From the NCBI GenBank assembly GCA_031362805.1, contig JANLTG010000215.1, positions 13,522-77,521 of the forward strand: 64,000 nt of DNA. Direction: 5' to 3'. Below the pieces are notes generated by a model. It was not told the origin of the DNA and searched no databases. It worked only from the letters and a program-made list of their open reading frames with translations. This document shows, piece after piece, positions 2,551 to 45,908 of this stretch; the stretch's first letter is position 1, and each line of letters begins with the position of its first letter. Made by a program: the position numbers and the translations under genes. Source of the DNA: a bacterium (GTDB taxonomy: Bacteria > Verrucomicrobiota > Verrucomicrobiia > Limisphaerales > RI-55).

Positions 2551-2786
2551 CAGGGCTTGATCCCCAACGACTCCCAACCCAGGACTTCATCCTGGGCTAT
2601 GGAATGGCGGCCTTTCAGGCCTGCCCGGGCGACTTCGACAATTGGGTCGTGACCGGGAAACGTTTTCGCAATCCACAAGTATCGACCCAGTTATCCGCCA
2701 CTTCCAATCGCCCCCGTCACCTGGAACTTCTGGGCTGCACGGTCGGTGGCTTGCATCGCGACGGCGAAGAGTTCAACTATCACCCC

Positions 2787-4406
2787 ATGCCCAACTTCTT
2801 CCGACGGCACAAGATTTTCACCGGCTTGCTGAGCCTCTTCCTGCTGGCGGTGCTGGCCTTGTTTGTCTTCGTGCGGGTGCGGATGCACGGCCCCTATCGC
2901 GAGTATCGCGTGGACACGGAGTTCGTTTCCGCAGCGGCGGGCACGGTCGATCCGGCACCGCTGCTCGTGGGCGTGGCCAAGCGCGACATCACGCCCGATC
3001 TCGCGCAGTTCGATTCGTGGGTGGACGCGGACAAGAACAGCAAGTTCGAGCAGGAGAAGGGCGACACCTACACGGACCGCAATGGCAACGGCGATTTCGA
3101 CTTCGTCTGGATGGGCGGCTTCGACGAGAACCGGCCGGCCCAAGGCGTGAACGATCCGCTCTGGACGCGCGCCATCGCCTTCCGTCATCACGGCACGACG
3201 GTGGTGCTGGTGAGCATCGATTGTGTCGGGCTCACGCACGAGCGCTTCATCAAGCTGCGCAAGTCCATCGACCACGCGCAGCACGGCATCACGCACCTCG
3301 CCTTCTCCTCGACGCACACGCACAACGGCCCGGACACGATGGGCATCTGGAGTTACCGGCCGGTGTTCGGCAAGTTCAGCGAAGCCTACGTCGAGTCGAT
3401 CCTCACCAAGTCGCGCGAGGCGATTCTCGAAGCGGTCGGCAATCTGCAACCGGCCGACGCCATCATCGCGACGGAGCAACTGGAGGCGCCAGGTTTTGTG
3501 CGCGATGCGCGGAAGCCGCAGGTCTTCGATCATCATTTGAACGCCGCGCGTTTTGTGAAGGCCGGCACCCGCGAGACGATTGCGACGCTCGTGAGCTGGG
3601 GCAATCACCCCGAGGCGATGGGCGGCGACAATCCGTTGCTCAGCTCGGACTTCGCCCATTACTGGCGCGAAGGCATGGAGCAGGGATTGCCGCAGCCGAA
3701 CGGCGTCGAAGGGCTCGGCGGCATATGCGTGTTCGTCCAGGGCCCGGTCGGCGGATTGATGACGCCGCTCGGGCTCGATGTGCCGGATCGCGACGGGCAG
3801 ACGATTCACAAGGACAATGGCGTCGGCAAAACCCGCGCGCTGGGTGAGAACCTGGCGCTGCGCACGATCAAGCTGCTGGCGTCGGATCGCGCCCAACGCA
3901 TGACGAATCACACCGTCGCCGGCGTGGCGAAGACGATCTTCGCGCCGATCGAGGGCACGTATCGGATTCCGCTCATGCTTGGGTTGATTCATCCGGGTTG
4001 GTACAACGGCACCGCGAAGACCGAGGTGAGCGCGTTGCGCATCGGCGACCTTGAGATCCTGAACATCCCCGGTGAAATTTATCCGGAGATTGTGGATGGC
4101 GGCATCGAAGCTCCCGAGGGCGGCGACTTCCCAGGCCAGCCGCTCGAAGTCCCGCCGTTGCGCTCGGAGATGAGCGGCGCGGTCAACATGGTGTTCAACC
4201 TCGCGAACGACGAGATCGGCTACATCATCCCGCGCACGCAATGGGACGTGCAACCGCCCTACACCTACGGCGCGAAGGACGCACCTTACGGCGAGGTGAA
4301 TTCAGGCGGGTACGACGTTGCGCAAGTGGTTCATGCCGCGAGCCGGGATGTTTTGAAGCGCTTGCATGACCTGCTGGATGGCGCGGCCAAACCCGCTGGT
4401 CGTTGA
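2787..4406 (+). CDS. Membrane-anchored hydrolase with a neutral/alkaline ceramidase-like N-terminal domain
   Basis: The ORF runs 2604-4406. ATG at 2787 precedes a TM helix (IFTGLLSLFLLAVLALFVFV). Motifs GVNDPLWTRAIAF and AFSSTHTHNGPD resemble the neutral ceramidase N-domain. Confidence 0.55.
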   Translation: MPNFFRRHKIFTGLLSLFLLAVLALFVFVRVRMHGPYREYRVDTEFVSAAAGTVDPAPLLVGVAKRDITPDLAQFDSWVDADKNSKFEQEKGDTYTDRNGNGDFDFVWMGGFDENRPAQGVNDPLWTRAIAFRHHGTTVVLVSIDCVGLTHERFIKLRKSIDHAQHGITHLAFSSTHTHNGPDTMGIWSYRPVFGKFSEAYVESILTKSREAILEAVGNLQPADAIIATEQLEAPGFVRDARKPQVFDHHLNAARFVKAGTRETIATLVSWGNHPEAMGGDNPLLSSDFAHYWREGMEQGLPQPNGVEGLGGICVFVQGPVGGLMTPLGLDVPDRDGQTIHKDNGVGKTRALGENLALRTIKLLASDRAQRMTNHTVAGVAKTIFAPIEGTYRIPLMLGLIHPGWYNGTAKTEVSALRIGDLEILNIPGEIYPEIVDGGIEAPEGGDFPGQPLEVPPLRSEMSGAVNMVFNLANDEIGYIIPRTQWDVQPPYTYGAKDAPYGEVNSGGYDVAQVVHAASRDVLKRLHDLLDGAAKPAGR

Positions 4407-4507
4407 TGAATCACCTGCCGAACAATTCCTTCCCCGCCCCCGTGCGGCCGGAGCGCACCGCCCGATCGGCGGGAATAAGCCCGGTCAACGACGCCTCCTA
4501 GCTGCGC

Positions 4508-5056
4508 ATGGACACGGAATTTGAGGGCGTGGTGGACCGGTTCTACCAACCGCTTTACCGGTTCGCGTTGAGTCTCACGCGCGCCGAGTCGGAAGCCTTC
4601 GATCTGACGCAACAGACGTTCTACCTGTGGGCGACCCGGGGCCATCAGTTACGCGACCGGTCCAAATCAAAGTCATGGCTGTTTACGACCTTGCACCGGG
4701 AGTTTTTGGGCTCGCGCCGCCGCGGTGTGCGTTTCCCGCACCACGAAGTCAGCTCCGTCGAGCATCAGTTGCCCGTGGTCGCGCCGACCGTCGTCAACGA
4801 TCTGGACGGCACGACGGTCATGGAAGCGTTGCTGGAAGTGGAGGAACTTTATCGCGCGCCGCTCATGCTCTTTTACCTGCAAGATCACGCCTACAAGGAG
4901 ATCGCCGAGATTCTGGAGGTGCCAATCGGCACGGTGATGTCGCGGCTGGCGCGCGGGAAGGATCAATTGCGGGCGTTGATCGCGGACGGAGCGAAACGAG
5001 GCGGGACCAAGATCGTGCCCCTGAAGCAATCCCAACTGAAAGCCGGTAATGGATAA
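4508..5056 (+). CDS. ECF-type RNA polymerase sigma factor (sigma-70 family, group 4)
   Basis: 182 aa. Region 2-like FYQPLYRFALSLT and region 4 HTH YKEIAEILEVPIGTVMSRLARGKDQL. Confidence 0.85.
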   Translation: MDTEFEGVVDRFYQPLYRFALSLTRAESEAFDLTQQTFYLWATRGHQLRDRSKSKSWLFTTLHREFLGSRRRGVRFPHHEVSSVEHQLPVVAPTVVNDLDGTTVMEALLEVEELYRAPLMLFYLQDHAYKEIAEILEVPIGTVMSRLARGKDQLRALIADGAKRGGTKIVPLKQSQLKAGNG

Positions 5057-5843
5057 GCACGAAGCCAAGTTGCTGCTGCAATCGTATCGCCCCAACGGGC
5101 AGGACGCGGGCGATCCGGCATTTGCCGAGGCGCTGGCACTGGCGCGGCAGGATCCGGAGCTGAGCGACTGGTTCCGCCGTGAATGCGAGCTGGATACCGC
5201 CATCGCCGCGAAGCTGGCCGCTACCGCAGTTCCGGCCGATCTGCGCCAGTCCATTCTCACGGGCCAACGCAGCCAGCGCCAGTTCGCGCGCCCTGACTTC
5301 CTCTGGTGGCGTTCGCCCGCCCTGGCGTGGGCTGCCGCCATCGCGGTCGTGTTCGTGGCTGCGTTCTTCTTTCGCGACCAAGGCGGATCACCTTTGTCGA
5401 TCACGGCTTATCGCAATGCGATGGCGGATCATTTGAGTTCGGGATTTGTATTCGATGTGCGGAGTCAACAGCCCGAGCAATTGCAATCCTGGCTGGCCGA
5501 GCGGCGGGCCTTCGGCGCCCTGCAACTCCCCGAGACGCTCCTGTTGAGCAGCTCCATCGGGTGTCAGCTGTTCGAATTCGAGGGCAGAAAATCGGTGTTG
5601 CTCTGTTTCACGCTGGCGGACAAGCAAGTGGTTCACCTGTTCGTGACCGATGCCGCAGCGTTCGAGCTCGGCCAGGTGGGCGAGGAACCGTCGCTCTGCC
5701 GCTGCGAAAAATGGAACGCCTGCTTCTGGCGCAAGGACGGCCTCGTTTATCTGGCGCTGGGCTCGGTAAACGCCGGGCAACTGGCCGAGATCGCCGGCCT
5801 GGGCCCGGCCGCGCCAGCTAATGCTGGAGAAAACCGCCGGTAA
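5049..5843 (+). CDS. Putative anti-sigma factor (single-pass membrane protein)
   Basis: 8-nt overlap with the sigma factor gene (ATGGATAA). Central TM helix (ALAWAAAIAVVFVAAFFF). Position is typical of ECF anti-sigma partners. Confidence 0.55.
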   Translation: MDKHEAKLLLQSYRPNGQDAGDPAFAEALALARQDPELSDWFRRECELDTAIAAKLAATAVPADLRQSILTGQRSQRQFARPDFLWWRSPALAWAAAIAVVFVAAFFFRDQGGSPLSITAYRNAMADHLSSGFVFDVRSQQPEQLQSWLAERRAFGALQLPETLLLSSSIGCQLFEFEGRKSVLLCFTLADKQVVHLFVTDAAAFELGQVGEEPSLCRCEKWNACFWRKDGLVYLALGSVNAGQLAEIAGLGPAAPANAGENRR

Positions 5844-38964: not shown

Positions 38965-40155
38965 ATGTCCATCTTCAATCCCCGGAAAACTCAACGCGGC
39001 AGTGCGGTTTGTGCGATTGCCCCGCTCGCCGCCGCCGCCGCCCTGGCCCTCGTCGGCTGCAAGCCGGCCGCTGACTCTGGTGCTGGACCGGCGCCGGCCA
39101 CGATCAAAGTCGGCGAATACGCGTCGCTGACCGGCAGCGAGGCGGCGTTTGGCCAGTCGTCCCACAAGGGCACCCTGCTGGCCATCGAAGAAGTCAACCA
39201 GGCGGGCGGGGTCCTCGGGAAGCAGATCGAACTGGTCACCGAAGACAACCAGTCCAAGGCCGGCGAGTCCGCGACCATCGTCAAGAAGTTCATCAGCCGC
39301 GACAAAGTGGTGGCCGTGCTCGGTGAGGTGGCTTCCGGGCGGTCGCTTGAAGCCGGCCCCATCTGCCAGGCCGCTGGCATTCCCATGGTTTCGCCGTCGT
39401 CCACCAACCCGAAGGTCACGCAGGTCGGTGACTACATCTTCCGAGTCTGCTTCATTGATTCCTTCCAGGGGAAATTGATCGCGGACTTCGCGCAGAAGAC
39501 GCTCAAGGCCAAACGCGTCGCCATTCTCTTCGATGTCTCGCAAGCCTACTCGGTCGGGCTGGCGGAGTTCTTCGCGCAACCCTTCGTCGCCGGTGGTGGC
39601 GAGATCATCGCAAAACTCAACTTCACTTCCGCCGACAAGGATTTCCGCGCGCAACTCACCAACCTCAAGGCCCTCAATCCCGACGCGATCTGCGTGCCCG
39701 CGTACTATGGACCGGTCGGCCTGATCGTGAAGCAGGCGCGCGAGCTGGGCATCATGGTGCCGATCTTCGGCGGCGACGGTTGGGAAGCACCCGAACTGAT
39801 CGAACTGGCCGGCGGCGAGGCGCTGAAGAACACCTACTACTCGACGCACTTCTCGCCCGCGCAGGACACGCCGTCGGCGAAGAAGTTCGTCGCGGCGTTC
39901 AAAGCGAAGTTCAACGGCGAAGTGCCCGACGCGATGGCCGCGCTGGGCTACGACTCGGCCCTCGCGTTGATCGAGGCGATCAAGAAGGCCGGCTCGGCCG
40001 AGTCCGCGAAGATCAAGGAAGCGCTCAAGACCACTGATTTCACGGGCGCCACGGGCCGCACGTTGCTCGACGCCAACCGCGACGCCACCAAGCCGGCGGT
40101 CATCATCACGGTCGAGAACAACGCATTCAAGTTTCTGCAAACGGTCGAGCCTTGA
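38965..40155 (+). CDS. Branched-chain amino acid ABC transporter substrate-binding lipoprotein (paralog 1)
   Basis: ATG at 38965 gives a lipobox ...ALALVGC. IKVGEYASLTGSEAAFG and the periplasmic binding protein type I pattern. Confidence 0.8.
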   Translation: MSIFNPRKTQRGSAVCAIAPLAAAAALALVGCKPAADSGAGPAPATIKVGEYASLTGSEAAFGQSSHKGTLLAIEEVNQAGGVLGKQIELVTEDNQSKAGESATIVKKFISRDKVVAVLGEVASGRSLEAGPICQAAGIPMVSPSSTNPKVTQVGDYIFRVCFIDSFQGKLIADFAQKTLKAKRVAILFDVSQAYSVGLAEFFAQPFVAGGGEIIAKLNFTSADKDFRAQLTNLKALNPDAICVPAYYGPVGLIVKQARELGIMVPIFGGDGWEAPELIELAGGEALKNTYYSTHFSPAQDTPSAKKFVAAFKAKFNGEVPDAMAALGYDSALALIEAIKKAGSAESAKIKEALKTTDFTGATGRTLLDANRDATKPAVIITVENNAFKFLQTVEP

Positions 40156-40170
40156 GGCGAACCCAAGCGC

Positions 40171-41346
40171 ATGAATCACATTGCCTTTGCCGTCCGCCGC
40201 GTCCGAGTGGGATCGATCGGATTGCTGTTGGTTCTGATCGTTGCCACGACGGGCGGCTGTGATCGCCCAACCGCTTCCTCCAAAGCCAGCGATCCCATTC
40301 GCATTGGCCAGCTCGCTTCGTTGACCGGCCGGCAGGCGAGCCTTGGTCAATACAGTCACGCTGGCTCCGTCGCCGCCGTGAAGGAATTGAATGCGGCCGG
40401 CGGCGTTCTCGGACGCCAGATCGAACTGATCACCGAGGATCTCCGCTCGAACTCCGGCGAGGCCGCCACGGCGGTTCGCAAGCTGATCTCCCGCGATGGT
40501 GTGGTCGCCATGATCTCCAGCGGAACGTCCGGCCAGGCGTTGGAGGCTGGTCCCTTCTGCCAGCAACAGGGGATTCCCATGGTCTGCGACGGAGCCACCG
40601 CCCAGGAAGTGACGGCGATGGGCGACGCCATCTTCCGCGTGTGTTTCACCGATCCGTTTCAAGGCACGGTGATGGCCCGGTTCGCCCGCGAGAACTTGAA
40701 GATCCAGCGCATCGGCCTGCTGGTCGATTCGAGTTCACACTACAGCGTCGGGCTGGCCGACTTCTTCAAGCGGCGGTTCCTCGCCGACGGCGGCACGATC
40801 GTCGGTGAACAGAAATACTCCGGTGGCGATCGCGACTTCCGGCCGCAGCTCACCGCGCTCAAGGCCGCGCAGCCCGAGGCGCTGTTCATCCCCGGTTTGT
40901 ATGCGGAGACGGGTTTGATCCTGCCGCAAGCTCGCGAGCTGGGTTTCACCGGAACCATGCTGGGTGGCGACGGCTGGGAGGCGCCCGAACTGTTGCAGCT
41001 CGCGGACAAGTCAGCGGAAGGCGGCTACTTTCCAGTGCATTTTTCCACGGCATCTCCCACTCCTCGGGTCCGGGAATGGATGCAGCGAGTCGCGGCGGAA
41101 TTCGGCCGTGAACCGAACGGCATCACCGCCCTGGGCTACGATGCCGTGATGTTGCTGGCGGATGCGATTCGCCGCGCCGGCACGACGGACCCCGCTGCGA
41201 TTCGTTCCGCCCTGGCGACGACGAAAGACTTCGACGGATTGACGGGCCGCATCACTCTCGATGCCCAGCGCAACGCGCAAAAGCCGGCCGTCATCGTCAA
41301 GATCGAGGACGGTGCGTTCAAGTTTTTGCAGACAGTGGAGCCTTGA
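40171..41346 (+). CDS. Branched-chain amino acid ABC transporter substrate-binding lipoprotein (paralog 2)
   Basis: Lipobox VATTGGC. IRIGQLASLTGRQASLG. The C-terminus ...KPAVIVKIEDGAFKFLQTVEP parallels paralog 1 (...KPAVIITVENNAFKFLQTVEP). Confidence 0.8.
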   Translation: MNHIAFAVRRVRVGSIGLLLVLIVATTGGCDRPTASSKASDPIRIGQLASLTGRQASLGQYSHAGSVAAVKELNAAGGVLGRQIELITEDLRSNSGEAATAVRKLISRDGVVAMISSGTSGQALEAGPFCQQQGIPMVCDGATAQEVTAMGDAIFRVCFTDPFQGTVMARFARENLKIQRIGLLVDSSSHYSVGLADFFKRRFLADGGTIVGEQKYSGGDRDFRPQLTALKAAQPEALFIPGLYAETGLILPQARELGFTGTMLGGDGWEAPELLQLADKSAEGGYFPVHFSTASPTPRVREWMQRVAAEFGREPNGITALGYDAVMLLADAIRRAGTTDPAAIRSALATTKDFDGLTGRITLDAQRNAQKPAVIVKIEDGAFKFLQTVEP

Positions 41347-41378
41347 ACCTGGCTGGCATTGGTGGCTACTTTGCGCAC

Positions 41379-41579
41379 ATGAAGCAGCAGCCAATGACCG
41401 TGGAGCTTCCGCCCGAACTCGCTGCGCGATTGCGCGCCTACATCGCGGAAGGCTGGGCGGCGAGCGCCGAAGAGGTGGTGGCGGAAGCGACCCGTCGGTA
41501 TCTGTGGACTCATCGACCGGAAGTTGTTGAGCGTCATTTGCGGGAAGACGTCGCCATGGCCCTGCGCGATGGCAAATGA
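41379..41579 (+). CDS. Putative ribbon-helix-helix antitoxin
   Basis: ATG at 41379. MTVELPPELAARLRAYIAEGWAASAEEVVAEATRRYL fits an RHH beta-strand plus two helices. ATGA overlap with the PIN gene. Confidence 0.5.
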   Translation: MKQQPMTVELPPELAARLRAYIAEGWAASAEEVVAEATRRYLWTHRPEVVERHLREDVAMALRDGK

Positions 41580-42073
41580 GTCACGCCGTGCTTTTGGATG
41601 CCGGTCCGTTGATTCATCTCGACGAACTGGGTTGCCTCAGCCTGTTCGCCACGCTGGGTGAACTCTTGATACCCGCCGAAGTTTGGTCGGAGACATTCGC
41701 CCACCGACCAGCCCTCCGCCTCGAAGACGTGCCTCAAGCCCGAATTCTGGACGCCGCGCCCGCTCCGTCCGTGGAGCTACGCTACCGGTTACGGCATTTC
41801 AATCTGGACGAGGGTGAAGCGGCGGCTCTCTCATGGCTTGAAACCCTGCGTGGTGGAATCCTTGTTTCCGACGATGGCGAAGCGCGAGATGCCGCAAGAG
41901 AATTGAACTTCAAAGTGATTGGCACACTGGGAATCATTGTCCGAGCCAGCCGCCGGGGTGTGATTTCAATTGCCCAGGCCCGGGGTCATTTCGCGCGCAT
42001 TCGAGCCGACTCCAGTCTGCATGTGTCGGCCCAACTGCTGGCTGAATTGATCGCAGCGCTACCCACCGAATGA
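41576..42073 (+). CDS. PIN-domain protein of the DUF3368 type (putative toxin)
   Basis: 165 aa. VLLDAGPLIHLDELGCLSL...LIPAEVWSE...LDEGEAAALSW...ILVSDDGEARDAAREL...VIGTLGIIVRA follows the DUF3368/COG2405 pattern. Confidence 0.7.
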   Translation: MSHAVLLDAGPLIHLDELGCLSLFATLGELLIPAEVWSETFAHRPALRLEDVPQARILDAAPAPSVELRYRLRHFNLDEGEAAALSWLETLRGGILVSDDGEARDAARELNFKVIGTLGIIVRASRRGVISIAQARGHFARIRADSSLHVSAQLLAELIAALPTE

Positions 42074-43002
42074 GTGAGTTCCTCCAACAGCTGCTCAACG
42101 GCATCAACCTTGGCGCCATCTACGCGCTCATCGCGTTGGGCTACACGATGGTGTATGGCGTCCTGCGCTTCATTAACTTCGCCCACAGCGATGTCTTCAT
42201 GGTTGGAGCCTTCGTGGGTTACTACGCCGGACAAAAGTGGGGATTCCCCACCGGCTCCATCGGCGGCGGCCTGCTGGTCCTCATCACGGCGATGGCCGTC
42301 TGCGCGGCATTGGGAGTTACGGTTGAGCGTCTCGCTTACAAGCCGTTGCGTGGTCGATCGACGTTGACCGTCCTCATTACCGCCATCGGCGTTTCACTCC
42401 TGATCCAGAATGTGGCGCAGCACAGCCGGATCGGGTTTGGTCCCAATCCGAAGTCATTCCAATTCGACGGCCCCAATGGCACGCGCCACGGGCTCTTTCC
42501 TGAAACACCGATCACGCTCGGCGACCTCACTGTTTCGAGCAACCAGGTCATTATTCTCGTCGTGACGCTCGCCTTGCTGGCCGCGCTCTGGTGGATTGTG
42601 CATCGCACCAAGATCGGCACGGCCATGCGCGCCGTCTCGTTCAATGCCACCGCGGCGTCACTCGTGGGGATCAACAACAACGCCGTGATCTCATTTACCT
42701 TCGCGCTCGGCTCGGCGCTCGCGGGTGCGGGCGGCGTCCTCTACGCGATGAATTATCCAAGCATCGATCCGCTGATGGGCACATTGCCGGGGCTCAAAGC
42801 ATTTGTCGCGGCCGTGCTCGGCGGCATTGGCAACCTGCCCGGCGCGGCGCTCGGCGGGCTGTTGATCGGCATGATCGAGACCTTCGTGAAAGGCAGTCCG
42901 TTCTCGACTTACACCGACGCCATCGCCTTTGCGATCCTGATTCTGATCCTCCTGTTTCGCCCCGCCGGCTTGCTGGGGACCTTGAAGACGGAGAAAGTTT
43001 AA
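42070..43002 (+). CDS. livH: Branched-chain amino acid ABC transporter permease
   Basis: 310 aa. LLNGINLGAIYALIALGYTMVYGVLRFINFAHSD is the canonical LivH start. ATGA overlap with the PIN gene stop. Confidence 0.9.
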   Translation: MSEFLQQLLNGINLGAIYALIALGYTMVYGVLRFINFAHSDVFMVGAFVGYYAGQKWGFPTGSIGGGLLVLITAMAVCAALGVTVERLAYKPLRGRSTLTVLITAIGVSLLIQNVAQHSRIGFGPNPKSFQFDGPNGTRHGLFPETPITLGDLTVSSNQVIILVVTLALLAALWWIVHRTKIGTAMRAVSFNATAASLVGINNNAVISFTFALGSALAGAGGVLYAMNYPSIDPLMGTLPGLKAFVAAVLGGIGNLPGAALGGLLIGMIETFVKGSPFSTYTDAIAFAILILILLFRPAGLLGTLKTEKV

Positions 43003-43100
43003 GAACCACGAATGGGCAAAAAATTTAGCCGCAAAGGAACGCAGAGAACGCAAAAGGAAGAGTTTTCTTTGTGCTCTTTGCGTTCTCTTGTGGCAATTTA
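43003..43100. repeat. REP-like element inside the liv operon
   Basis: Begins g-aaccacgaatg directly after the livH stop. Hairpin aacgcagagaacgcaaa / tttgcgttctct (about 43044-43090). Confidence 0.65.
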
Positions 43101-43158
43101 TCCGGGTGCGGCGTCCGTCGCGCCAAGTTCATTTGTGTCCTTGCGCGGCTAACAAACG

Positions 43159-44118
43159 ATGTTTCCCCGCTCCCAAATCTGGCTTCTCCTCGCGCTGGCG
43201 CTCGCCGGTGGGCTGGCAGCGGTGTCAGGTAGCATTGATCCTTACTTTCTCGACGTGGCGATGGGAGTGGGCATCAACCTGATCCTCGCCGTCAGCTTGA
43301 ATCTCATCAACGGCTTCACGGGGCAGTTCTCGCTCGGGCACGCCGGGTTCATGGCGGTCGGCGCCTACACCGCCGGCACCGTGACCACTACGCTCGGCTC
43401 GAAACTTCTGCCGCTCGTCGGTGGACAACCCTGGTTGCTGTTTCCCTTCGCTCTCATCTCCGGCGGTTTGCTTGCGGCGTTGGCGGGGCTCGCGGTTGGC
43501 GCGCCTTCCCTCCGGCTCAAGGGCGATTACCTCGCCATCGTCACGCTCGGGTTCGGCGAGATCATCAAAGTCATCTTGCAGAACCTGGACTTTGTCGGGG
43601 GTGCTCGCGGCTTGACCGGCATTCCCTCCGGCATCCCGCCTTACACGCAGATCGTCACCTTCTGGACGATCGCCATGGCGGCACTGACCATTTACGTCGT
43701 GTGGGGACTGTTGAACTCGACCTATGGCCGGGGCTTTCTGGCGGTGGCCGACGACGAGATTGCCGCCGAGTCGATGGGCCTGAACACCACGCGCTACAAA
43801 ATCACCGCGTTCGTGGTCGGCTCGTTCTTCGCAGGAATTGCCGGCGGACTTTACGCGCACTTGAAAGGCTACTTGAACCCGAGCGGCTTTGATTTCAACA
43901 AGAGCATCGAGGTGGTGGTGATGGTGATCCTTGGTGGCATGGGCCGGCACGTGGGCGTGATCATCGCCGCCGTCCTTTTGACTGTCGTCCAGGAACCGCT
44001 GCGGCAGCTCGGTGATTGGCGGATGATTCTCTACGCACTGCTGCTGATCGTCCTGATGCTCACCCGTCCGCAAGGCCTCTTCACCTGGCCGTTGTGGAAA
44101 AGGAAGAAGACGACTTAG
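43159..44118 (+). CDS. livM: Branched-chain amino acid ABC transporter permease
   Basis: 319 aa. INLILAVSLNLINGFTGQFSLGHAGFMAVGAY is the LivM signature. Confidence 0.9.
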   Translation: MFPRSQIWLLLALALAGGLAAVSGSIDPYFLDVAMGVGINLILAVSLNLINGFTGQFSLGHAGFMAVGAYTAGTVTTTLGSKLLPLVGGQPWLLFPFALISGGLLAALAGLAVGAPSLRLKGDYLAIVTLGFGEIIKVILQNLDFVGGARGLTGIPSGIPPYTQIVTFWTIAMAALTIYVVWGLLNSTYGRGFLAVADDEIAAESMGLNTTRYKITAFVVGSFFAGIAGGLYAHLKGYLNPSGFDFNKSIEVVVMVILGGMGRHVGVIIAAVLLTVVQEPLRQLGDWRMILYALLLIVLMLTRPQGLFTWPLWKRKKTT

Positions 44119-44400
44119 AACCACGAATGAACACCAATTCACACGAAGCTGATTGTCGGCGGAAGGCGCTCTCACTTGGGTTCGGAGGAGGCGGTCAGCG
44201 GGGTGACGGACCGCGGGCTTGCAGCCCGCAGCGGGCGAGGATGTCCGTCGGGTACAGGGCACTCCTGCCTGCTCACGGAGCCGCTGCGGACAAAATGTCC
44301 GCGGTCCGCCCGCCCGGCTGCGTGCACCTGTCCGTCGTCCGTCATTCCCAAGCGCATCCGGTGCTCTCGAATTCGTGTCCATTCGTGTCTATTCGTGGTT
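44119..44400. repeat. 282-nt intergenic insertion with about 30-nt terminal inverted repeats built from tandem decamers (MITE/REP-like)
   Basis: Left end aaccacgaat-gaacaccaat-tcacacgaag (44119-44148). Right end attcgtgtcc-attcgtgtct-attcgtggtt (44371-44400). The reverse complement matches at 24 of 30 positions by hand count. It starts directly after the livM stop and ends 5 nt before the livG ATG. Confidence 0.7.
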
Positions 44401-44405
44401 AACTT

Positions 44406-45176
44406 ATGCAACCGCTCCTCCAACTCGACAACGTGACGATCCGCTTCGGTGGGTTGACCGCGGTGTCAGCCGTGTCCGCGACGGTGGGGGAACGCGAACT
44501 CGTCGGGCTCATCGGCCCGAACGGCGCCGGCAAGACCACAGTGTTCAACATGGTCACCGGCGTTTATCAACCGACGGAAGGCGAGATCCGGTTCACCGGC
44601 GATCGCATCTGCAACCGCAAGCCGTTCGAGATCACGGAATGCGGCATCGCCCGCACGTTTCAAAACATCCGGCTCTTCCCGAGCCTCAGCGTCTTCGACA
44701 ATGTCCGTGTCGCGTTTCATCTGCACCTCGAACACGATGCACTCCATTCGCTCACGCGCGGCCGGCGTTTCCATCAGGAGGAACGCGAGATCGCCGCTCG
44801 CACGCGGGAGTTGCTCGACATCTTCAACCTCGGCCGCGTGCGGGATGAGCCGGCCAAGTCGCTGCCGTATGGGGATCAACGCCGGCTCGAAATCATCCGC
44901 GCGCTGGCCACGCGTCCGAAGCTGTTGCTGCTCGACGAACCCGCCGCCGGCATGAACCCGACCGAGAAGGTTGAGCTCATGAAGTTGATTCGGTTCATTC
45001 AGGAGAAATTCCAGCTCGCCATCCTGCTGGTCGAGCACGACATGAAGGTGGTCATGGGCATCTGCGAACGCATTCACGTGCTGGAGTACGGGCGCAAGAT
45101 CGCCGAGGGCACGCCCGAAGAGATCCGGAACAACGAGGCGGTAATTGCGGCCTACTTGGGGAAAGAGCACGCATAG
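44406..45176 (+). CDS. livG: Branched-chain amino acid ABC transporter ATP-binding protein
   Basis: 256 aa. Walker A GPNGAGKTT, signature LPYGDQRRLEI, Walker B LLLLDEPAAG. Confidence 0.9.
   Translation: MQPLLQLDNVTIRFGGLTAVSAVSATVGERELVGLIGPNGAGKTTVFNMVTGVYQPTEGEIRFTGDRICNRKPFEITECGIARTFQNIRLFPSLSVFDNVRVAFHLHLEHDALHSLTRGRRFHQEEREIAARTRELLDIFNLGRVRDEPAKSLPYGDQRRLEIIRALATRPKLLLLDEPAAGMNPTEKVELMKLIRFIQEKFQLAILLVEHDMKVVMGICERIHVLEYGRKIAEGTPEEIRNNEAVIAAYLGKEHA

Positions 45177-45200: not shown

Positions 45201-45904
<704 letters not shown>

Positions 45905-45908
<4 letters not shown>

Follow-up and report, generated by a model that had tools for sequence, protein, structure and literature searches.

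Type II toxin–antitoxin (TA) modules of the VapBC type with ribbon-helix-helix (RHH) antitoxins, such as FitAB and the CopG/RHH VapB pairs, are built from a small RHH gene that lies upstream of, and overlaps, a gene for a PIN-fold toxin. Here we describe a gene pair of this layout in a 64,000-nt stretch of contig JANLTG010000215.1 (GCA_031362805.1; Verrucomicrobiota), hereafter the window, where it sits inside an operon for a LIV-I type branched-chain amino-acid ABC transporter, between a binding-protein gene (SBP) and the permease gene livH. TA modules co-transcribed with host operons are exemplified by Staphylococcus aureus mazEF upstream of rsbUVW-sigB and by Escherichia coli relA-mazEF. 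The window pair resembles these as a co-directional TA pair inside a housekeeping transcription unit, in which the promoter can feed the downstream genes; it differs in that the toxin stop overlaps the start codon of the downstream gene, which encodes a transporter permease, and in that only a minority of relatives carry the cassette, with allele replacement at the same site. On the toxin side, the nearest precedents are the predicted COG2405 (DUF3368)–COG2886 (UPF0175) TA pairs (Makarova et al. 2009; Matelska et al. 2017, PMC5499597; Geobacillus GK1949/GK1950, PMC6929052). Matelska et al. placed COG2405/PF11848 in the VapC group as “potential toxins” and identified UPF0175 as the characteristic partner of COG2405. 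The window pair shares the toxin family and the two-gene overlapping layout with these predicted pairs, whereas its partner gene encodes an RHH protein of a 64–66 aa family (GW...EALRRYL...EDVxWGL) with no UPF0175 match.

Compared with VapBC-type modules, the likeness extends to the PIN fold (from a structure model and Foldseek), to acidic residues at the first three canonical positions and to an extra C-terminal antitoxin helix, as expected for toxin binding. The differences are that the toxin belongs to the COG2405/DUF3368 branch rather than to Pfam PIN (PF01850), that it has no sequence-level match to solved structures, and that its fourth acidic position is a Thr. The pair is therefore ordinary in kind, being of a computationally known TA family with an RHH partner and a toxin of the PIN/VapC branch. 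What is new here, and modestly interesting in comparative terms, is a site-faithful, swappable cassette lineage combined with a leaderless-promoter geometry. In the reading that we favour with moderate confidence, the pair is an accessory type II TA-like cassette that has long resided at the SBP–livH site, is exchanged by recombination, and persists as a selfish and/or defence element.

Architecture of the RHH–PIN pair within the liv operon

An earlier note on this DNA had proposed the operon order SBP1, SBP2, RHH antitoxin, DUF3368-type PIN protein, livH, livM, livG and livF, and the open reading frames (ORFs) and Pfam matches agree with it. The putative antitoxin gene (41379–41579, forward strand, 66 aa), identified from its homologues and from RHH matches of its family, is followed on the same strand by the PIN-like putative toxin gene of DUF3368/COG2405 (41576–42073, 165 aa), identified by Pfam DUF3368, its AlphaFold2 fold and its homologues, and then by livH (42070–43002, forward strand; permease, Pfam BPD_transp_2, E=2.2e-44). 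Both ATGA junctions reported in that note are present: at 41576–41579 the RHH stop overlaps the PIN start by 4 nt, and at 42070–42073 the PIN stop overlaps the livH start. A third overlap, with the antitoxin gene beginning at 41343 across the SBP2 stop, was not upheld. TTG 41343 is only the start of the longest possible ORF and belongs to the Pro-stop codons of SBP2; the antitoxin homologues all begin at the equivalent of ATG 41379 (MK...; 66 aa), and gene callers place the start at 41379 or 41394. With the start at ATG 41379 the gene begins 32 nt past SBP2, so overlaps occur at just two of the junctions.

The PIN/livH junction is partly a by-product of livH, because livH itself begins with ATGA(C/G)N in relatives both with and without the cassette. 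This overlap is found in four of the eight cassette-bearing lineages, with gaps of 3–17 nt in the other four, and the PIN C-terminus is correspondingly variable, running to the stop at the livH junction in four lineages and ending 3–17 nt short of it in four.

The window arrangement is reproduced base for base in two independent assemblies (L002 and L004). A further 1.8-kb contig of a metagenome-assembled genome (MAG) (L003 1–709; GCA_031374345.1, JANMFV010001164.1) is identical to window 41389 to 42483 and carries, upstream of the junction at 41389, unrelated sequence with PNPOx_N and DUF3237 genes on the other strand. This junction, 10 nt into the antitoxin gene, may be a real rearrangement, but L003 is more probably an assembly chimera because of the two assemblies that reproduce the window.

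The PIN-type protein

The 165-aa ORF scored 26.8 bits against Pfam DUF3368 (PF11848.13; cutoff, 27.3), while PF11848.14 matches are precomputed for a database protein of identical sequence (P0001) and for each of the other 92 homologues. In an alignment of 28 PIN homologues (A1), 20 members match PF11848 at E≤0.05, and members of the family also match PIN_4 and PIN_6 by sequence. Judged from these matches, membership of DUF3368/COG2405 appears clear by homology and marginal by single-model score. An AlphaFold2 model built on the 28 sequences of A1 reached a pLDDT of 95, and a Foldseek comparison of this model with the PDB returned, at probability 1.0, the PIN domains of HARP minimal RNase P, P. 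horikoshii VapC4 and PAE2754. PDB sequence searches with the single PIN sequence and with the profile found no match, so the link to PIN structures comes from fold comparison only.

Conservation of the PIN acidic catalytic residues, considered in the earlier note, was found in part. E39, E81 and D99 are invariant in A1 and D8 and D100 are near-invariant; D8, E39 and D99 occupy the first three canonical PIN acidic positions relative to the strands and helix of the model, and the fourth position, after the strand at 113–115, is a conserved Thr (T117). This missing residue favours the idea that the DUF3368 protein is no longer a nuclease and, together with the RHH protein, forms a non-toxic, two-component transcription regulator. 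Such a function would also be in line with the variable (+/−) active-site conservation of COG2405 (Matelska et al. 2017, PMC5499597) and with the names “DNA-binding protein” and “nucleic acid-binding protein” given to RefSeq/NCBI homologues. These names are automatic annotations, however, and the three invariant and two near-invariant acidic residues are hard to explain without a metal-binding catalytic site; we therefore regard a non-toxic pair as very unlikely.

The putative RHH-type antitoxin

The RHH assignment emerges at the level of the family. In an alignment of 38 antitoxin family members (A2), 13 match Pfam RHH_8 and 7 match RHH_1, and the top PDB match of the A2 profile is the CopG RHH protein 9kkd_A (E=0.0038). 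Four homologues (P0095–P0098) are 68–76% identical to the window protein, three of which (P0096–P0098) are named CopG/Arc/MetJ RHH by JGI, and PGAP annotates a homologous pair on the Methylomonas plasmid pUP202 as “ribbon-helix-helix domain-containing protein” and “DNA-binding protein”. The family is very uniform, with 64–66 aa and the pattern ...P..L.....LV..GW.......EALRRYL.SHRPEL.E.FI.EDV.WGL. Neither the window protein nor any of the 38 family members matches PF03683 (UPF0175/COG2886). On these family-level matches, the predicted antitoxin is of RHH type and not of UPF0175 type.

An AlphaFold2 monomer of the antitoxin consists of a coil (residues 1–11) and three helices (12–23, 30–44 and 47–64). 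The coil would fit a strand that forms only in the dimer, and the last helix would fit a toxin-binding tail. A Foldseek search with this shallow monomer model (5 sequences, pLDDT 72.6) gave no meaningful match; as this is expected of an obligate-dimer RHH protein, the result speaks neither for nor against the assignment. The RHH matches of the family, the PIN fold and the overlapping gene order sustain the proposal that the RHH and DUF3368/COG2405 PIN genes form a pair built like a type II TA system. The window pair is probably active, given an intact gene, conserved acidic residues and purifying selection.

Distribution of the cassette among related liv operons

The two genes are conserved as a pair elsewhere, an RHH gene lying directly upstream of the PIN gene in 72 of the 80 nearest PIN loci, which come from metagenomes. 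The cassette occupies the same SBP–livH spacer in at least eight further lineages (L001, L007, L008, L009, L010, L056, L090 and L092), whose LivH proteins are 58–88% identical to that of the window. The order SBP, RHH, PIN, livH is seen as far as the contigs reach, that of L008 ending just after the RHH gene. Close antitoxin homologues are few (L001, L007, L008 and L009), and all lie between a binding-protein gene and livH where the contig extends. The best PIN matches of a metagenome scan, L090 and L092, again show this order, with PIN proteins 46% and 42% identical and LivH proteins 62% and 58% identical to those of the window, respectively. In L092 the binding-protein gene upstream of the cassette (2551–3773) is split into ORFs at 2551–3342 and 3375–3773, owing either to a frameshift that made it a pseudogene or to a sequencing error.

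Presence or absence of the pair in liv operons, a comparison raised in the earlier note, was then surveyed in species-representative genomes, taking the 80 best relatives of LivH, each of which is either labelled Verrucomicrobiota or comes from a mis-binned MAG. In 72 of these the sequence upstream of livH extends for 800 nt or more, and only two of the 72 (L010 and L056) carry the cassette; in the cassette-free relatives the SBP–livH spacer is mostly 20–150 nt long. The distribution is thus patchy. In neighbour-joining trees, the six closest liv-embedded cassettes are monophyletic, with bootstrap support of 99/100 for PIN alone and 100/100 for RHH plus PIN, and this core is joined by L090 at 70% and by L092 at 40%. 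In the LivH tree, cassette-bearing loci fall into two separate groups that are interleaved with cassette-free loci.

Replacement, decay and composition of the cassette

The clearest sign of exchange comes from the loci L007 and L056. Their SBP and livH genes are 90–97% identical at the nucleotide level, whereas the segment from the SBP stop to the livH start is only 35–72% identical, with sharp edges. The synonymous divergence (dS) between the two loci is 0.23 in livH and 1.55 in PIN, an excess that reflects a different history rather than faster protein evolution. In the tree of RHH plus PIN, L007 groups with L010 (100%) to the exclusion of L056, and the placement of L056 is incongruent with that in the LivH tree. 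This comparison indicates replacement of cassette alleles between the L007 and L056 backgrounds. Strictly vertical inheritance from a single origin was rejected as the sole process, as the L056 cassette is incongruent with its own flanks. Separately, a block of about 200 nt within the SBP gene (L007 1200–1400) is only 56–67% identical between the two loci, which suggests a mosaic segment from recombination within that gene.

A search for repeats and elements around the cassette revealed no convincing target-site duplication, terminal inverted repeats, integrase or insertion sequence. Mobility by transposition or site-specific integration was therefore set aside in favour of homologous recombination, and spread or replacement through the conserved flanks (...FKFLQTVEP* and MTEFLQQLING...) would be the simplest route.

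The toxin gene has decayed in one lineage. The PIN gene of L010 (5587–5985) carries an in-frame deletion of about 33 aa that leaves 132 aa and removes the conserved segment from R104 to GTLG, and both the antitoxin gene and livH of this locus are intact. Another protein of 132 aa (P0005) may be the same deletion variant in other samples. The composition of the window cassette is also atypical, with a G+C content at third codon positions (GC3) of 67% for the RHH gene and 60% for the PIN gene versus 77–84% for the six liv genes. Where measurable, dN/dS is about 0.1–0.3 for the RHH and PIN genes (about 0.1–0.2 for the RHH gene), as expected under purifying selection, the values being only rough because most pairs have reached saturation at synonymous positions (dS>1).

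Genomic contexts of the family and a possible link to defence

Members of the RHH–PIN family abut a range of unrelated host genes. A fumarase beta subunit gene lies downstream on the same strand at −4 nt in L105 and at +6 nt in L126 (the L105 family-member locus being at 4501–5076, upstream of this gene), and an aspartokinase–homoserine dehydrogenase (thrA-like) gene lies downstream on the same strand at +2 nt in L153 (3938–5533). In L144 (646–7254) the pair has a DUF1156 methylase-like gene on one side and a PLD-SNF2 helicase gene on the other, same strand, at +18 and −4 nt; in L005 it lies within a ketosynthase/ACP/FabA cluster; and on the Methylomonas plasmid pUP202 the RHH gene overlaps the preceding gene by 4 nt. 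Embedding in operons with stop/start overlaps is therefore a general habit of the family and not specific to liv.

Some of these data bear on an anti-phage role, in which the PIN nuclease would be released on infection and act by abortive infection, with the location in liv being incidental. The PIN protein matches the PADLOC PDC-S70 HMMs over its full length (E=3.8e-22), the L144 pair stands between methylase-like and helicase genes, and alleles were replaced between the close relatives L007 and L056, as is typical of defence loci. PDC-S70 is, however, a statistically defined candidate system only, and the window copy lies outside any defence island, a Pfam scan having found no other defence genes flanking the pair in the window. 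As a separate explanation we consider abortive infection unlikely; it overlaps with the accessory-cassette reading and differs from it only in the benefit that maintains the cassette.

Promoter-like element and transcription of livHMGF

Directly upstream of the antitoxin gene lies a promoter-like element (41343–41372, forward strand), a motif match with a −35 hexamer TTGAAC (41343–41348), an 18-nt spacer and a −10 hexamer TACTTT (41367–41372). The −35 hexamer overlaps the SBP2 stop, the −10 hexamer ends 6 nt before ATG 41379, and no Shine-Dalgarno sequence precedes this ATG. A corresponding geometry, TTGAnn-N16-18-TAnnnT ending 6–7 nt before the ATG, is present in six of the eight other liv-embedded loci (L007, L008, L009, L010, L056 and L090). 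L001 and L092 lack it, and the sequence that separates the two hexamers shows no conservation among the six loci. Across the 65 distinct upstream regions of the RHH–PIN family, which include the liv-embedded loci, the strict pattern occurs in 16 versus 1.4% of shuffles. Examples are TTGACG-N18-TATAAT-6-ATG in L005 and TTGACC-N17-TATCAT-7-ATG in L094; most other family members carry a Shine-Dalgarno sequence instead. This geometry points to a leaderless transcript that would begin at the antitoxin ATG. A generic promoter scan missed the element, its −10 being weak.

The promoter spacers of several loci contain short repeats, inverted or direct (AGCAAAC-N8-GTTTGCT in L056, ACCGC-N7-GCGGT in L001, and I7 at 41357–41371/41382–41396 in the window). 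They were rejected as an operator, since they differ among loci and are indistinguishable from chance.

A terminator scan of 41320–43100, from the SBP2 end to the livH–livM spacer, found no terminator-like site. The PIN–livH distance is only −4 to +17 nt in all lineages, and livHMGF must on this account be transcribed from the TA promoter and/or by read-through from SBP. The cassette is most likely co-transcribed with livHMGF, and livH is possibly translationally coupled to PIN. Of the internal terminator and promoter that, according to the earlier note, would uncouple the pair from liv, the terminator is lacking before livH, but a promoter-like element does lie directly upstream of the antitoxin gene.

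Cassette-free relatives show a different signal in the SBP–livH spacer, a TTGACC-N17/18-(T)CAGGCT or CACGCT element 11–33 nt before livH (L011, L013–L015, L018, L024, L026, L028, L029, L031 and L047). The TTGACC-N17/18-CAGGCT-like element is present in 7 of 37 cassette-free spacers versus 0.6% of shuffles, and four more have the −35 over the SBP stop. It is likely an internal livHMGF promoter with an unusual −10.

These signals bear on domestication, in which the TA promoter would have replaced the native internal livH promoter, antitoxin turnover under amino-acid starvation would relieve its repression and so raise permease and ATPase synthesis, and livH translation would be tied to that of PIN. 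In cassette loci the sole promoter-like element stands before the antitoxin gene and the −4 to +17 nt gap leaves no room for another, while many cassette-free relatives have their own element before livH. The site has moreover been kept across LivH identities of 58–88% with both genes under purifying selection, and the ATGA coupling is retained in four of eight lineages. On the other hand, 70 of the 72 related species representatives run the operon without the cassette, its alleles were swapped between near-identical backgrounds, the L010 toxin has decayed next to an intact livH, GC3 is atypical, and the family abuts functionally unrelated genes, with nothing specific to amino-acid transport. 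We accordingly hold domestication to be improbable. Slightly less probable still is the specific proposal that, in some Verrucomicrobiota, a single TA lineage has come to supply both the internal promoter of livHMGF and the module that initiates its translation, with permease synthesis gated by antitoxin stability. If this TA-switch reading were true, a starvation-sensing TA module would be wired to nutrient uptake by a leaderless promoter and stop/start coupling.

A probable accessory, exchangeable cassette

The accessory, exchangeable reading is favoured because of the rarity of the cassette (2/72), the one replacement, the decayed toxin, the atypical GC3 and the unrelated contexts of the family. 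The earlier note had offered either domestication or selfish stabilisation of the operon; the comparative data favour an accessory exchangeable cassette, and domestication as a livHMGF regulator receives no direct support from them. In the mechanism that we propose, an RHH dimer would neutralise the PIN nuclease through its C-terminal helix, and the RHH–PIN complex would repress the promoter just upstream, which stops 6 nt short of the antitoxin ATG and would yield a leaderless transcript. This transcript, together with any SBP read-through, would run on into livHMGF, there being no terminator and no room for a second promoter, and livH translation would begin at the PIN stop codon. Homologous recombination in the conserved genes on either side would let related lineages gain, lose and exchange the cassette, which would persist as a selfish (addictive) and/or phage-defence module that is not integral to amino-acid uptake. 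In this scheme we infer from sequence and models that the PIN protein is toxic and is neutralised, that the promoter is active and autoregulated, that translation is coupled and that recombination is the route of exchange. The cassette may be kept through addiction, through defence or because of a side-effect on liv regulation.

Several observations weigh against this reading. The persistence of one cassette lineage at one site down to about 60% LivH identity, under purifying selection and with tight coupling, would also fit a host-beneficial role. The recombination route draws mainly on one locus pair, L007/L056, and the promoter is a motif match only, with a weak −10 in the window. On the protein side, the window antitoxin by itself has no Pfam match, and its best NCBIfam match, ParD at E=0.021, lies below every RHH threshold. 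The toxin lacks the fourth canonical acidic residue and belongs to a family of variable active-site conservation. Finally, a literature search found no experimental study of any COG2405/DUF3368 toxin, and toxicity is for this reason assumed from family and fold.

A core nutrient-uptake operon in which a single cassette lineage is tied to one intergenic site, in Verrucomicrobiota that are themselves divergent, makes a useful context for comparison. It offers a natural system for distinguishing persistence of chromosomal TA modules by addiction or defence from their co-option as promoters of neighbouring genes, and for studying the spread of a TA cassette without any integrase. In addition, the pair gives the COG2405/DUF3368 family a small and clearly delimited candidate with which biochemical testing could begin.

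Remaining liv genes and other insertions in liv operons

The remaining genes of the operon are all on the forward strand. SBP1 (38965–40155) encodes a LivJ/K-like protein with a lipoprotein-type signal peptide (Pfam Peripla_BP_6, E=4.9e-63), its start being that of a 396-aa gene call in L002, and SBP2 (40171–41346; Peripla_BP_6, E=1.3e-68) is its paralogue by tblastn cross-hits, the two being about 50% identical. Downstream of livH lie the permease gene livM (43159–44118; BPD_transp_2, E=1.5e-46) and the ATPase genes livG (44406–45176) and livF (45201–45908), both matching ABC_tran and BCA_ABC_TP_C. The Pfam matches of all six genes fit an operon for a LIV-I type branched-chain amino-acid ABC transporter.

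Other sequences have accumulated in the spacers of liv operons. In Opitutaceae MAGs the SBP–livH spacer holds an ORF of 122–123 aa (L062 5590–5958, L064 5590–5958, L083 5584–5949 and L089 2874–3242), of which L071 keeps a remnant, and which by eye resembles four-helix-bundle (“23S rRNA intervening sequence”-like) proteins. In L034 (1525–2277, minus strand) the same spacer contains a 251-aa ORF on the opposite strand that is SRAP/YedK-like by eye. The SBP–livH spacer appears to be an insertion hot spot. Within the window, the 287-nt livM–livG spacer (44119–44400) is bounded by terminal inverted repeats of 16 nt (AACCACGAATGAACAC / GTGTCTATTCGTGGTT) and folds along its whole length (RNA z=−5.6), and from its sequence it looks like a miniature inverted-repeat transposable element. 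Its 11-mer AACCACGAATG also opens the livH–livM spacer (43004–43158), which is 156 nt long in the window versus 5 nt in L001, and the pattern AACCACGAATRRRCA has three matches in the window versus 0 expected.

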